Below the pieces are notes generated by a model. It was not told where the DNA came from. It did not search any database and was given only the letters and a program-made list of their open reading frames with translations. DNA of 9,989 nucleotides from a virus (Duplodnaviria > Heunggongvirae > Uroviricota > Caudoviricetes), in IMG/VR virus record IMGVR_UViG_2562617151_000006; one strand, written 5' to 3'. A program made the position numbers and the translations under genes. Below are positions 3,308 to 9,989 of this stretch, in pieces (the first letter of the stretch is position 1; every line of letters begins with the position of its first letter).

Positions 3308-3883
3308 CTACGGCAGTGCTGGCCATTCAATATCCGGTGCAGTTGATGTATCAACACGGTTCAGCAACACCCGATACTTTTTCCAGGCTTCCAGCAACAA
3401 GGTTTCTTCCTCCGTTGCGATCTCCAGATCCACAGCATCCTGAAGCGGCGCTATATGCTCACTGGCTATCTGCATCAGGCTGTTTTTTGTTTCTTCCGCC
3501 TCCCGGATCCGGAACAGTTTTTCTGCTTCCGTATCCTTCACCCAGGCTGTGCCGTTCCACTTCTGATATTCCCCTCCCGGCGATAACCAGGTAACATTTT
3601 CCGGTAACGGACCGAGTTCAGAAATAAATAACGCGTCCCCTGATGCCACGTCATAAACCGTTTTACCCCGATGATCTTCAACGAGATGCCACGATGCCTC
3701 ATCACTGTTGAAAACAGCCACGAAGCCTGCCGGAATATCTGGCGGTGCAATATCGGTACTGTTTGCTGGCAGACCTGTATGAGGCGGAATATATGCGTCA
3801 CCTTCACCAATAAATTCATTAGTTCCGGCCAGCAGATTATAAATTTTTATGGTCCGTGGTTGTTCACTCATTCTGAATGCCAT
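3308..3883 (-). CDS. tfaQ: Tail fibre assembly protein (lambda Tfa-like, 191 aa)
   Basis: 191-aa ORF starting [18 protein letters not shown]..., recalled as near-identical to lambda Tfa. Its ATG overlaps the stop of the upstream stf remnant (TAATG), indicating translational coupling. Confidence 0.9.
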
Positions 3884-4191
3884 TACGCAAGCCTCACAAT
3901 ATAGTTAAATGCGATGTTTTTGACGGTGTTTTCCGCGTTACCAGCAGCGTTAACGGTGATGGTATGTCCATGTGAACCAATCGCAACGGAGTGCGTATGA
4001 GCACCAATACCGACAGTATGTGCGTGTGCACCTGCGCTTGCAGCAGTACCCGATACAGAGTGCGTATGAGCGCCTGCAGAAGAAGTGTTAACACTGTATT
4101 TAGAATAATCAGGTGATCCACTTCCCGGAGCACCACTGGAACCACCTGAAACAAATGTCATCGAATGGGTATGTGCACCGGCTGTCCCCAT
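3883..4191 (-). pseudogene. stfQ: Side tail fibre (Stf) C-terminal remnant, about 100 codons
   Basis: ORF ends ...[30 protein letters not shown], matching the recalled lambda Stf C-terminus. Contains repeated GAHTHS/GAHAHT His-rich motifs. No credible N-terminal part; the frame breaks near 4158-4191. Confidence 0.8.
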
Positions 4192-4445
4192 GCATTTACC
4201 GCCCGGACTGTCAGCCTGTAATTTCCCAGCGCCAGCTGCGTGAAGCGATATGTGGTTTCCGTCGTCCGGGCCGTGCTGACCAACCGCTCACTGCCGTCGT
4301 CCGCTGCCACGGTCAGGCGAAGCATAAAGCTCACCCCCTTCACCACCTTCGGCGTGTCCCAGCGCGCCAGCACCTGGTATTCCCCGCTGTCTGCGGTGAC
4401 TTCTGCGGTCAGGTGCTGAACTGCTGGCGGCGTGACACCATTCAC
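4158..4445 (-). pseudogene. Internal fragment of a lambda J-type tail tip/host specificity gene (FN3-like segment)
   Basis: 95-codon frame with ...[66 protein letters not shown], recalled as an internal segment of lambda gpJ. Starts at a GTG that overlaps the nohA stop (GTGA). Different frame from the stf remnant. No real start or full-length gene. Confidence 0.65.
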
Positions 4446-4987
4446 CGTGCCGCTCTGGTCACCGTCAAAGTGCGCCCCGTTATCAGTTCATCCAGCGCGG
4501 CTGCTTTGTTCATGGCTTTGATGATATCCCGTTTCAGGAAATCAACATGTCGGTTTTCCAGTTCCGGAAAACGCCGCTGCACCGACAGGGGGATCCCGTC
4601 GAGAATACTGGCAATTTCACCTGCGATCCGCGACAGCACGAAAGTACAGAATGCGGTTTCCACCACTTCAGCGGAGTCTCTGGCATTTTTCAGCTCCTGT
4701 GCGTCGGCCTGCGCACGCGTAAGTCGATGGCGTTCGTACTCAATAGTCCCTGGCTGGAGATCTGTCTCGCTGGCCTGCCGCAGTTCTTCAACTTCCCGGC
4801 GCAGCTTTTCGTTCTCAATTTCAGCATCCCTTTCGGCATACCATTTTATGACGGCGGCAGAATCATAAAGCACCTCATTACCCTTGCCACCGCCTCGCAG
4901 AACGGGCATTCCCTGTTCCTGCCAGTTCTGAATGGTACGGATACTCGCACCGAAAATGTCAGCCAGCTGCTTTTTGTTGACTTCCAT
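4442..4987 (-). CDS. nohA: Terminase small subunit, lambda Nu1 homologue (181 aa) with a divergent C-terminal tail
   Basis: MEVNKKQLADIFGASIRTIQNWQEQGMPVLRGGGKGNEVLYD... (winged-HTH DNA-binding N-domain) is recalled as essentially identical to lambda Nu1 until the last 13 residues or so, which diverge at a deletion junction. K-12 synonym nohQ. Confidence 0.9.
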   Translation of the reverse strand: MEVNKKQLADIFGASIRTIQNWQEQGMPVLRGGGKGNEVLYDSAAVIKWYAERDAEIENEKLRREVEELRQASETDLQPGTIEYERHRLTRAQADAQELKNARDSAEVVETAFCTFVLSRIAGEIASILDGIPLSVQRRFPELENRHVDFLKRDIIKAMNKAAALDELITGRTLTVTRAAR

Positions 4988-5230
4988 TGTTCATTCCACG
5001 GACAAAAACAGAGAAAGGAAACGACAAAGGCCAAAAAGCCCGCTTTCAGCACCTGTCGTTTCCTTTCTTTTCAGGGGGTATTTTAAATAAAAACATTAAG
5101 TTACGACGAAGAAGAACGGAAACACCTTAAACCGGAAAATTTTCATAAATAGCGAAAACCCGCGAGGTCGCCGCCCCGTAACCTGTCGGATCACCGGAAA
5201 GGACCCGTAAAGTGATAATGATTATCATCT
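4988..5230 (-). other. Lambda-type cohesive end site (cosB with R1/R2/R3 and I1, cosN, cosQ-side flank)
   Basis: Reverse complement of 5165-5176 is GGGCGGCGACCT, the lambda 12-nt cohesive end. Flanks read (rc) ...CCGACAGGTTACG|GGGCGGCGACCTCGCGGGTTTTCGCTATTTATGAAAATTTTCCGG..., matching the recalled lambda ends. Nu1-binding R elements at 5012-5026, 5053-5067 and 5110-5126 (CGTTTCC cores); AT-rich IHF-like segment at 5078-5100. Confidence 0.8.
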
Positions 5231-5375
5231 ACATATCACAACGTGCGTGGAGGCCATCAAACCACGTCAAATAATCAATTATGACGCAGGTATCGTATTA
5301 ATTGATCTGCATCAACTTAACGTAAAAACAACTTCAGACAATACAAATCAGCGACACTGAATACGGGGCAACCTC

Positions 5376-5609
5376 ATGTCAACGAAGAACAGAACCCGCA
5401 GAACAACAACCCGCAACATCCGCTTTCCTAACCAAATGATTGAACAAATTAACATCGCTCTTGAGCAAAAAGGGTCCGGGAATTTCTCAGCCTGGGTCAT
5501 TGAAGCCTGCCGCCGGAGACTGTGCTCAGAAAAAAGAGTTTCTTCTGAAGCAAACAAAGAAAAGAGTGACATTACTGAATTGCTCAGAAAACAGGTCAGA
5601 CCAGATTGA
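5376..5609 (+). CDS. ynfO: Small ribbon-helix-helix-like protein (YnfO/YlcI family, DUF3950), 77 aa
   Basis: Basic N-tail, then a beta-strand-like RNIRFP followed by two predicted helices (NQMIEQINIALEQ; NFSAWVIEACRRRL), the typical RHH pattern. Position between cos and the lysis cassette matches the recalled Qin ynfO. Confidence 0.7.
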   Translation: MSTKNRTRRTTTRNIRFPNQMIEQINIALEQKGSGNFSAWVIEACRRRLCSEKRVSSEANKEKSDITELLRKQVRPD

Positions 5610-5666
5610 AGCAATTTAGATAATCGTGCAGACTACGCCCCCTCATATCACATGGAAGGTTTATCT

Positions 5667-6077
5667 ATGGATCAGGTAGTCATTTTTAAACAAATATTTG
5701 ATAAAGTTCGAAACGATTTAAACTATCAATGGTTTTATTCTGAGCTAAAACGTCACAATGTCTCACATTACATTTACTATTTAGCCACAGAGAATGTTCA
5801 TATTGTATTAAAAAATGATAATACAGTGTTATTAAAGGGCCTAAAAAACATTGTGTCTGTCAAATTTTCAAAGGATAGGCATCTTATAGAAACGACCTCT
5901 AATAAGCTGAAATCCAGAGAGATCACATTTCAGGAATACAGAAGAAACCTTGCTAAAGCAGGAGTTTTTCGGTGGGTTACAAATATCCACGAACAAAAAA
6001 GATATTACTATACCTTTGATAATTCATTACTATTTACTGAAAGCATCCAGAAAACTACACAGATCTTACCACGCTAA
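5667..6077 (+). CDS. ydfO: DUF1398 family protein (YdfO/YbcV-like), 136 aa
   Basis: ORF track 5652-6077. Preferred start is ATG 5667 ([10 protein letters not shown]...) with GGAAGG 7 nt upstream. Lies 57 bp downstream of ynfO on the same strand. Recalled as YdfO. Confidence 0.8.
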
Positions 6078-6228
6078 ACCATAACGTCCGGCTTCTCTCA
6101 CTCCTGAGCCGGACTGCATTGGTTTAATAAAAACCATCAACAATTGTGATTTAGATATTCGGAACCATTCAAATATAACAAAACCCCGTAAAAACGAGGT
6201 TTATGGATAAATTTTATTATTGAATACA

Positions 6229-6402
6229 TCAGATTAAATTAATCTTGACATCATAGCTTTCAAGACCCGTCATTTTTTCCCGTGCGGTAAACTGAATACT
6301 GGTAACTTCTTTCCCGGTCTTTTTCTTAAGTTCAATAATTTTTTTTGTTATATATTCAGAAATATCTGCTTCTGCTTTTGTTTTTAAGTTTTCAATATTC
6401 AT
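6229..6402 (-). CDS. gnsB: GnsB, small protein (57 aa), multicopy suppressor of secG null (Gns family)
   Basis: Minus-strand ORF MNIENLKTKAEADISEYITKKIIELKKKTGKEVTSIQFTAREKMTGLESYDVKINLI, translated by hand. Below the ORF track size cutoff. Recalled as GnsA/GnsB family. Confidence 0.75.
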   Translation of the reverse strand: MNIENLKTKAEADISEYITKKIIELKKKTGKEVTSIQFTAREKMTGLESYDVKINLI

Positions 6403-6573
6403 CATTTCCTCTTTTAGTCTGTTATGACTTTCCAGTTACACAGTAAGTCGATTATATGGTGCAAACGTGTAAAAGATAAGATGAAACATCGCAATAATCA
6501 ACATACGATAGTCTAAATTTTACACAAACAGACAAAGAGAATTTTCCTGAATTATCAATGCAATAGCATCAAA

Positions 6574-6868: not shown

Positions 6869-7075
6869 CTTCATTTTCACTTTTTTAAATCCAACGACAG
6901 ACGGCTGGCATTTAAGTATTGTGAAATATTATCAAATGTAATCATCATTGATTTACAAAAGATACATTTTGCCCCGAAAGGATTCATGTCAGAAACATCA
7001 AAAGATGATGTTCTATACTGGGAACCATGACAACACGGGCATCTAAAGTGAATATGGTTTGTAATATTGTCTACC

Positions 7076-7288
7076 TCAAAGCGCCACTACATGAACAGCG
7101 GCAGGACCTTTAGGTCCGTTCTCAATACCAAATTCAACTTCCTGATTCTCAGTTAATGTTTTGAAATCGTTGCTCTGAATTGCTGAGAAATGGACAAACA
7201 CATCTTTGCTGCCATCTTTCGGCGTGATGAAACCAAAACCTTTTTCAGGGTTAAACCATTTCACTAAACCAGTCATTTTGTTAGACAT
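7076..7288 (-). CDS. cspI: Cold shock protein, CspA family (70 aa)
   Basis: [38 protein letters not shown]... carries the RNP1 (KGFGFI) and RNP2 (VFVHF) motifs of the cold-shock domain. AAGG Shine-Dalgarno upstream. Recalled as CspI of Qin. Confidence 0.9.
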
Positions 7289-7430
7289 AATTATTACCTT
7301 TTGAAGAAATTAGCCCTTGGGCAGAATGGTCCGAAAAAAAATATCAGAGAGAAAAACCAACAAGGAAATCTCAAGAGGTACAAATAATAAAATTATAACA
7401 ATGACTGCTTCAGATAAATTTGTAACAAAC
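7289..7430 (-). promoter_or_regulatory. Putative cspI promoter and long 5' UTR
   Basis: A perfect TATAAT on the minus strand (complement of 7392-7397) lies about 105 nt upstream of the cspI ATG, in an AT-rich region. CspA-family genes are known to have long structured 5' UTRs. Exact transcription start and any cold-box are not determined. Confidence 0.4.
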
Positions 7431-7650
7431 CAGAACACCATTAACGCATGATTAACCACCCATAGCAAGGATTACTTTTGTAAAGAAAAACACAGCAATG
7501 AAAGAATAGCTTTATTTATTAATAAAACGTGTCATTCTGATTAAGACCTTTTATCTTACCCTTAAGATTTCAGGAATTTTGGCTCATGGAAGAGTCCTTT
7601 TTATTTAAATTTTACATTCCGCGATGTAAATGTTCCGATTTAATATTACC

Positions 7651-9744: not shown

Positions 9745-9989
<245 letters not shown>

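Follow-up and report, generated by a model that had tools for sequence, protein, structure and literature searches.

The genes ynfO and ydfO are both already known, and their closest described counterparts are ylcI and ybcV of the cryptic prophage DLP12 and lambdap78 of phage lambda. Several published observations concern the DUF1398 family, to which ydfO, ybcV and lambdap78 belong. In Escherichia coli, the ionic liquid [C2mim]Cl raised ydfO expression 116-fold, and overexpression of YdfO is said to raise oxidative-stress resistance (PMC4077768). In the same work, a plasmid fusion with a cloned 'ydfO promoter' was inactive in the conditions used, which the authors attributed to growth-phase dependence. 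Genomic SELEX reported a PdhR site, AACAGGTCAGACCAGAT, at ynfO/ydfO, and the mRNA levels of ybcV and ybcW were about 10-fold lower in a pdhR mutant (PMC7660256). Overexpression of the T4 protein MotB raised ybcV and ybcW more than 1000-fold, an effect that the title of the study ascribes to altered H-NS-dependent repression (PMC7827196). The ASKA clone of ybcV was found to be viable and glycogen-deficient (PMC2853380), and a ybcV::Kan Keio strain is in use (PMC3945230). In K-12, ydfO was classed as 'essential' by TraDIS only (PMC5821084) and is not listed as essential in the Keio and PEC sets. The literature on the ydfO gene of Bacillus subtilis was considered and set aside as not relevant to E. 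coli ydfO. As for the other family, YlcI/YnfO proteins are listed in the capsid-forming PICIs of Enterobacter (PMC13612085). The pair ybcW-ylcI is found among the convergent overlapping transcript pairs present in at least 50% of MG1655 RNA-seq samples (PMC12288877), which indicates that ylcI is transcribed.

In lambda, the DUF1398 homologue is lambdap78 (47045-47452, complement; 79% identity to YdfO), and the YlcI/YnfO homologue is an intact ORF of 64 amino acids (48109-48303, complement) that carries no annotation in NC_001416. In DLP12, ylcI and ybcV are 656 bp apart, with ybcW between them on the opposite strand. The two families are thus separated by about 650 bp in both genomes, ybcW or lambdap79 lying between them on the opposite strand, and bor follows.

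The corresponding pair in the Qin prophage had been put forward in an earlier note as a candidate regulatory, toxin-antitoxin or defence unit. The analysis described here leads to a different reading, which we consider more likely than not: ynfO and ydfO are neighbouring accessory genes of a lambdoid prophage that can occur apart from each other, and not one system.

Gene arrangement in Qin, DLP12 and lambda

The window, that is, the whole stretch of 9,989 nucleotides that was analysed (IMG/VR record IMGVR_UViG_2562617151_000006), is the E. coli Qin cryptic prophage, in which the two genes are annotated ynfO and ydfO. RefSeq chromosomes match a 1151-bp query around the pair at up to 100% identity and carry the features ynfO (YlcI/YnfO family), ydfO (DUF1398) and gnsB. 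The basic description given in the earlier note is borne out. Both reading frames, of 77 and 136 amino acids, lie where it had placed them (Table 1), with a gap of 57 bp. YnfO matches Pfam PF13132 (DUF3950) with an E-value of 2.7e-21 and 75.6 bits, above the cut-off of 25, and NCBIfam NF041551 (YlcI_YnfO_N) with 36.6 bits, above the cut-off of 30. YdfO matches Pfam DUF1398 above the gathering score (E 1.5e-46), and its gene has a Shine-Dalgarno sequence of its own, as had been noticed. The 136-amino-acid form of YdfO starts at the second in-frame ATG (5667), and the first, at 5652, would give a protein of 141 amino acids. The PDB entry 2HH8, named 'ydfO', is identical to the YdfO of the Qin stretch except for one residue. 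The flanking genes nohA (4442-4987, Phage_Nu1), gnsB, ynfN, cspI, rzpQ and rrrQ are all located on the minus strand, so that the pair does run opposite to nohA and the lysis genes. Positions 5160-5176 correspond to the reverse complement of the lambda left end. Since the lambda chromosome end aligns to 5176/5177, the ynfO start codon lies about 200 bp inside cos, and the mapped position of cosN places the pair between cos and the lysis cassette, in the zone of accessory genes, again as the note had claimed.

Table 1. Features of the ynfO-ydfO region of Qin, in coordinates of the window
Feature	Position	Strand	Basis
cosN cohesive-end bases, virion chromosome end	5165..5176		blastn alignment to lambda ends: lambda base 48502 = window 5177
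Inverted repeat ATCAATTATGACG / CGTATTAATTGAT, candidate operator	5274..5306		repeat search: 13-nt arms, 85% complementary, 7 nt apart; 70-100 bp upstream of ynfO
ynfO CDS, 77 aa, YlcI/YnfO family, DUF3950	5376..5609	+	ORF list, Pfam, NCBIfam, RefSeq annotation
YnfO conserved N-terminal domain: basic arm, predicted beta-strand NIRFP, helix A, GSGNFS turn, helix B; probable ribbon-helix-helix	5376..5525	+	variant alignment, AF2, hhalign, Foldseek
Qin-specific joint: 50 bp in place of the ~610-bp ylcI-tail and ybcW segment of lambda/DLP12; encodes most of the Qin-type YnfO C-tail	5539..5588	+	blastn blocks, alignment
PdhR-box-like imperfect palindrome AACAGGTCAGACCAGAT	5590..5606	+	exact match to gSELEX-derived site; 60-77 bp upstream of ydfO ATG, overlaps ynfO 3' end
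Shine-Dalgarno-like GGAAGG for ydfO	5654..5659	+	sequence; 7 nt before ATG; invariant in Qin, DLP12, lambda and locus L146
ydfO CDS, 136 aa, DUF1398, two tandem alpha2-beta3 repeats	5667..6077	+	ORF list, Pfam
Stable hairpin, possible transcript end, no clear U-tract	6086..6114	+	RNA fold of 6076-6135: -20.3 kcal/mol, z -6.4, 0/200 shuffles as stable; 9 nt after ydfO stop

Comparison by blastn shows that the close spacing in Qin is a derived state. Positions 4475-5538 of the window, covering nohA, cos and codons 1-54 of ynfO, are 97-98% identical to DLP12 and lambda. The homology breaks after 5538 and resumes at 5589/5593, from where it extends to 6096 at 84-85% identity. Between these two blocks, 50 bp of Qin replace the ybcW-containing segment of about 610 bp found in lambda and DLP12, and the spacing of 57 bp is therefore the product of a rearrangement. 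The final 20 nt of ynfO in Qin belong to the upstream block that is conserved in ybcV-type genes, of which they form the distal part. The base composition changes at about position 5600, from a GC content of 41-45% between cos and ynfO (41-57% on the cos-nohA side) to 30-36% in ydfO. The earlier note had mentioned an equivalent arrangement next to nohD in DLP12; this is correct in part, ylcI and ybcV being both near nohD, but 656 bp and an opposite-strand gene lie between them. As for its further argument, that recurrence in two independent prophages would speak for a functional unit, Qin and DLP12 are not independent: they share a nohA-cos-ynfO block of 1064 bp at 97% identity.

The gene ydfO has an upstream region of its own. 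About 75 bp before its ATG, comprising the PdhR box and the Shine-Dalgarno sequence, are conserved with ybcV and lambdap78, both of which have the homologous box. This block and the 3' hairpin may serve an independent expression of ydfO, although no clear sigma-70 match accompanies them: neither a promoter scanning tool nor our own weight matrix found a sigma-70 promoter above background upstream of ynfO or ydfO, the best candidates scoring at about the median of any 200-nt stretch of the window. The terminator scan predicted no terminator between the two genes and did not call the hairpin after ydfO. With its variable presence in otherwise syntenic prophages and its GC content of 30-36%, ydfO has the features of a moron, and it is a separate AT-rich accessory gene of the DUF1398 family with its own upstream region.

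Co-occurrence of the two families

A census of 5426 complete E. coli genomes used three queries. The first, the conserved 150 nt at the 5' end of ynfO, identified ynfO-type genes at 9861 places (4184 genomes). The second, the 3' 278 nt of ydfO, does not cross-match ycgX and identified ydfO/ybcV-type genes at 3874 places (3019 genomes). The third, whole ydfO, matched 8903 places (5376 genomes); about 5029 of these, the surplus over the second query, are partial matches to ycgX, which adjoins bluR and iraM and has no DUF3950 gene there. Given 9861 against 3874 places, at most 39% of the ynfO-type genes can have a ydfO/ybcV-type neighbour and at least 61% are without one; from the whole-gene and 3' counts, about 56% of the DUF1398 genes (ycgX) are without ynfO. 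With thousands of copies, both are among the most widespread uncharacterised prophage genes of E. coli.

The same picture is given by phages and by individual loci. In the phage collection, a YnfO relative is present in 155 records and a YdfO relative in 43. All four combinations of presence and absence are seen in otherwise syntenic prophages. YnfO stands alone beside HNH-terS-terL in the Stx2a phage WGPS8 and in the O111:H8 and S12 prophages (L002, L143 and L144), and in L145 iss/bor comes immediately after ylcI on the same strand. In the Qin-like context gnsB-ynfN-cspI, one locus has YnfO without DUF1398 (L148) and another DUF1398 without YnfO (L147), both checked by tblastn. DUF1398 genes of 25-37% identity in Klebsiella, Raoultella, Kluyvera and Pseudocitrobacter are located among housekeeping genes, and within 5 kb of these chromosomal genes the YnfO HMM gave no match at E-values up to 10. 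The genome-contig scan for YdfO comprised 17 informative loci; most of the other matches were copies of the right end of lambda in short contigs assigned to unrelated taxa, and we read them as sequencing-control contamination. The search of the representative library for YdfO returned mostly fragments. A single-protein scan of viral contigs recovered only near-identical Qin-type loci.

Within Qin-type loci the spacing of 56-59 bp is kept in 78 of 79. Eighty contigs possess a YnfO at least 96% identical, and among them YdfO is at least 99% identical in 41, 95-99% in 7, 73-77% in 31 and absent in one, in which an IS5 is inserted after ynfO. The two proteins do not co-evolve, because a YnfO that is at least 96% identical is combined with YdfO alleles that are only 73-77% identical. 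The functional unit put forward in the earlier note, whether toxin-antitoxin, defence or regulator with partner, is not upheld: the genes are more often apart than together, and their alleles do not co-vary. The neighbourhood analysis of DUF3950 and DUF1398 that it had recommended goes largely the other way, at least 61% of the ynfO-type copies having no partner.

A lineage-specific operon is unlikely. It supposes that the YnfO of Qin-type prophages acts as a repressor on a promoter ahead of its own gene, and that ydfO, second on the transcript, has its dosage set by YnfO. The genes are on the same strand, their short gap is kept in nearly all Qin-type loci, and no terminator-like site separates them. 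The inactive 'ydfO promoter' fusion, for which its authors blamed growth-phase dependence, would also fit a main promoter further upstream (PMC4077768). However, the upstream block with the PdhR box is kept in ybcV and lambdap78, between which and ylcI a gene lies on the opposite strand; no DUF1398 gene follows most copies of ynfO, ynfO and ydfO alleles do not co-vary, and searches for a promoter and an operator gave none. Under the reading as two separable genes, Qin ynfO and ydfO are perhaps co-transcribed now, which would be a matter of circumstance and not of design.

It is very unlikely that the pair is a two-gene module for anti-phage defence or superinfection exclusion carried as prophage cargo. 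The position between the lysis genes and cos, where cargo varies, the anti-late strand as in bor, and the great abundance of both genes in E. coli prophages would suit such a role. Yet none of YnfO, YdfO and three neighbouring proteins matched a family of PADLOC-DB 2.0 at E-values up to 1, each of the two genes comes and goes independently of the other, neither product has an enzymatic or membrane-active domain, the fold of YdfO being an orphan, and the literature search gave no link of ynfO or ydfO to defence. The module is without positive evidence; YnfO or YdfO may have an exclusion role as a single gene.

The YnfO and YdfO proteins

In lambdoid genomes, lambda included, ynfO goes with the packaging (cos/terminase) end. 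Its place is just inside cos, divergent from nu1/nohA in phages of the lambda type and from HNH-terS-terL in the HK97-type Stx and O111 prophages. Homologues of about 40% identity were found in three other settings, each with its own Shine-Dalgarno sequence and in unrelated DNA: on an IncL/M plasmid-borne phage or satellite remnant, where the gene diverges from an Icd-like gene; in the 10.7-kb Pasteurella element Pmp7; and, as a protein of 175 amino acids, on a small Citrobacter plasmid. Across 15 variants, 36 of the 49 residues at the N-terminus are invariant, and the C-terminal tails are unrelated in sequence and length. Over these 49 codons, the Qin and Stx-phage genes differ by 11 synonymous and 5 non-synonymous changes, the latter mostly conservative. 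These figures, together with the different DNA that flanks the Stx-phage copy on both sides, indicate that selection acts on the protein and not on a DNA site, and that the N-terminal 50 or so residues of YnfO are under purifying selection.

The same evidence makes it highly improbable that ynfO is not a functional gene and that its conservation reflects a DNA-level role of cos-proximal sequence in packaging. The near identity of the nohA-cos-ynfO(1-54) block among Qin, DLP12 and lambda, and the lack of an annotated ynfO-type ORF in the lambda RefSeq record, could be taken that way, but the HK97-type prophages keep only the coding part between different flanks, synonymous changes outnumber the others, distant homologues have their own Shine-Dalgarno sequences in unrelated DNA, and ylcI is transcribed (PMC12288877). 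The lambda ylcI homologue is an intact, selected ORF missing from the reference annotation, and with a defined role it would be an extra gene for the best-studied phage.

The earlier note had ascribed a ribbon-helix-helix (RHH) signature to YnfO. As far as the pattern is concerned this stands: the N-tail is basic (MSTKNRTRRTTTRN), a strand/helix/helix succession is seen in the sequence, and NIRFP...KGSGNFS fits the strand and turn layout of RHH proteins. By hhalign, YnfO 12-33 was placed on Arc 9-30 with the strand and helix A in register (pairwise P 0.011, low probability) and on Mnt in the same register (P 0.15), compared with 6 columns and a P of 0.31 for the Cro control. In the AF2 monomer, residues 1-18 are extended and followed by helices at 19-32 and 34-50 (core pLDDT about 85, whole-model mean 69), the strand being unable to pair in a monomer. 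Foldseek gave three weak matches of this model in the PDB, two of which are RHH proteins, the ParD2 antitoxin (top) and the plasmid regulator Reg576, with E-values of about 7, which are not significant. Used as a profile against the PDB, the YnfO alignment gave no match, and Pfam at E-values up to 10 gave no second family and no RHH family. Statistical significance was thus reached by neither Foldseek, hhalign nor the PDB profile search. YnfO is probably an Arc-like RHH DNA binder whose similarity lies below significance, and its N-terminal domain would most likely act as an Arc/Mnt-like dimer.

Candidate operators point in the same direction for the distant relatives. In the IncL/M and Pmp7 homologues, two or three palindromes of the form GGTGT-N4-ACAC lie at most 100 bp upstream of the start codon and are the sole matches in each locus, and the Citrobacter locus has arrays of TGTGnATACA-like repeats. 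Such arrays are the layout expected of an autoregulated repressor. Near Qin ynfO there is no match to GGTGT-N4-ACAC, and a different inverted repeat is the candidate there (Table 1). Among the ATCAA repeats upstream of ynfO, no site fits the IHF consensus WATCAANNNNTTR on inspection by eye. Because distant relatives in satellite-like elements carry palindrome arrays over their own promoter region, YnfO is most likely a small repressor or autoregulator, which in lambdoid prophages would act on leftward, lysogen-expressed, anti-late transcription.

YdfO has an orphan fold, the same as that of the solved family member 2HH8. Structure comparison gave no toxin or nuclease similarity, in agreement with the earlier note, which had recognised no known toxin fold, and a search of BFVD gave no significant match. 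A type II toxin-antitoxin system, with YnfO as RHH antitoxin and YdfO as toxin, is scarcely credible, for although the locus is like a ParD/ParE-type one in the order and sizes of its genes and in the probable RHH protein encoded by the first, and few TraDIS insertions were recorded in ydfO (PMC5821084), about 5000 ycgX copies, the DUF1398 genes of other genera and locus L147 do without YnfO, YdfO has no toxin fold, overexpression of DUF1398 relatives is not lethal and YdfO itself has been made for NMR, the apparent essentiality falls on ydfO where the antitoxin and not the toxin should appear essential, the YnfO C-tail that would bind the toxin is identical across YdfO alleles 24% apart and hypervariable elsewhere, and a 57-bp gap with a GC step takes the place of translational coupling. 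It fails three testable defining features, namely conserved pairing, toxin fold and co-variation. The TraDIS essentiality of ydfO is the opposite of what is expected for a toxin gene. Since members of the family are stress-induced and their overexpression is tolerated in published data, it is more likely that YdfO modulates host physiology, perhaps by contacts with other proteins, than that it is a toxin. An attractive but mistaken candidate for a toxin-antitoxin or defence system is thereby dropped, and the YnfO and DUF1398 families are to be studied separately.

In lambda DNA, the right cohesive end is the tail-proximal end and the first to enter the cell. A bolder proposal, speculative and quite improbable as a whole, is that YlcI/YnfO is an overlooked core-adjacent lambda gene, common to PICI-like satellites, whose product, encoded about 200 bp inside that end, would act as an Arc-like repressor of its own expression. 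It might control leftward anti-late transcription or interfere with packaging or with helper-satellite interplay at cos. Separately, DUF1398 proteins could be prophage-borne modulators of host stress physiology, as the oxidative-stress and glycogen phenotypes and the position of ycgX beside iraM might suggest.

Comparison with known systems

Type II toxin-antitoxin systems such as ParD/ParE, RelB/RelE and CcdA/CcdB resemble the Qin locus in that a small, probably RHH-encoding gene is followed on the same strand by a gene for about 130 amino acids, and ParD2 is the top, though not significant, Foldseek match of YnfO. They differ from ynfO/ydfO in their conserved pairing, toxin fold and co-variation; moreover, the would-be toxin of Qin is tolerated, and its gene is set off by a gap of 57 bp with a step in composition.

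Arc and Mnt of phage P22 are closer to YnfO itself. The likeness comprises a small phage protein with an N-terminal arm, an N-hydrophobic-R-aromatic-P motif (NIRFP in YnfO, NLRWP in Arc), and thereafter helix A, a G-x-x-x-x-S turn and helix B. Upstream of their own genes, distant YnfO relatives also have palindromic repeats, a trait of autoregulated RHH repressors. YnfO differs in its hypervariable C-tail and in its location at the cos end and not in an immI-type region.

For YdfO, the nearest relatives are the DUF1398 paralogues, which share its fold: YbcV and lambdap78 are 79% and YcgX is 44% identical to it. The genes of YbcV and lambdap78 have the same upstream PdhR box as ydfO but are separated from ylcI by ybcW, whereas ycgX has neither a phage packaging context nor a YnfO neighbour. 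In its genomic setting, finally, ydfO resembles lambda bor and other lambdoid morons, being located between the lysis cassette and cos, against the late operon, with variable presence and deviant base composition. Bor is a lipoprotein with a serum-resistance phenotype, whereas YdfO is a soluble protein of cytoplasmic type.

YlcI/YnfO homologues in lambda and in distant elements

An intact homologue of the YlcI/YnfO family, 64 amino acids long and with 98% identity across residues 1-54, is encoded in phage lambda at 48109-48303 of the complementary strand of NC_001416 (3610-3804, minus strand, of the lambda locus L001). This ORF, located about 200 bp from the right cohesive end and on its inner side, carries no annotation in the RefSeq lambda record NC_001416.

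Distant homologues of the family are found in an IncL/M plasmid-borne phage or satellite remnant (L141), the Pasteurella element Pmp7 (L003) and a small Citrobacter plasmid (L140), and each is preceded, within about 100-150 bp 5' of its start codon, by a palindrome array. The motifs of these arrays are GGTGT-N4-ACAC or TGTGnATACA, and in L141 and L003 no motif matches were found in the whole locus other than in the upstream arrays. The arrays have the appearance of operator sites for a repressor that controls its own expression. The YnfO homologue of Pmp7 is antisense to, and overlaps, an annotated "transcriptional repressor" CDS, which may have been annotated on the wrong strand.

Features in the distant loci and in the window
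Feature	Location	Strand	Remark
Palindrome array	L141 3900-3988		upstream of distant YlcI/YnfO homologue
Palindrome array	L003 2891-2986		upstream of distant YlcI/YnfO homologue
Palindrome array	L140 526-679		upstream of distant YlcI/YnfO homologue
Annotated "transcriptional repressor"	L003 2583-3257	-	Pmp7; 224 aa
ORF, clear YnfO homologue	L003 3001-3180	+	Pmp7; 59 aa, own Shine-Dalgarno
cspA thermoregulator	window 7049-7434	-	Rfam match above gathering score; covers cspI 5' leader and gene
Candidate sRNA family IS009	window 3342-3540	-	Rfam match above gathering score; inside ORF 3308-3883 (-)
gnsB	window 6229-6405	-	Pfam "GnsA/GnsB toxin of bacterial toxin-antitoxin system", E 3.3e-35

Taxonomic range and naming of DUF1398 proteins

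Contigs of about 3.5 kb or 48.5 kb that represent the lambda right end turn up in entries labelled as "genomes" or "plasmids" from unrelated taxa, including Kitasatospora, Brevibacillus, Staphylococcus, Synechocystis and Xanthomonas. They comprise genome contigs (L089-L120), plasmids (H107, H111 and H115-H119) and many ENA contigs of about 3.5 kb. These sequences look like contamination by sequencing-control DNA, and they make DUF3950 and DUF1398 appear taxonomically more widespread than they are.

The DUF1398 protein (window 5667-6077; lambdap78 in lambda) is called "head protein" by PHROG 413 and RefSeq and "putative envelope protein" in older records; neither label found support in this analysis. 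The lambdap78 model (177 amino acids) starts 41 codons 5' of the point where the YdfO match begins. Distant DUF1398 members in Klebsiella, Raoultella, Kluyvera and Pseudocitrobacter (L122-L134) are single chromosomal genes with long intergenic regions upstream. Judged by ORF translations, some appear to adjoin icd or ttcA, the attachment sites of the E. coli prophages e14 and Rac, so these distant genes may be prophage leftovers.

Other genes of the window and the cos region

Since gnsB matches the Pfam GnsA/GnsB toxin family, it is the gene of the window with a toxin-antitoxin label, not the ynfO/ydfO pair, which the earlier note had considered a candidate for such a unit. The minus-strand ORF that contains the IS009 match is interpreted as tfaQ, a gene for tail-fibre assembly. 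On the minus strand, nohA encodes a full-length Nu1 homologue of 181 amino acids; within the region 4158-4987, this gene ends at 4442 and overlaps a minus-strand ORF at 4158-4445, beyond which lies pinQ. Neither a terminase large subunit gene nor head genes come after nohA, and therefore the Qin prophage seems to have lost them by deletion, along with most of its tail genes. The perfect palindrome TGATAAT-G-ATTATCA lies at 5213-5227, 37-51 bp from the chromosome end, and an identical palindrome is present in lambda, where this is presumably the position of cosQ.
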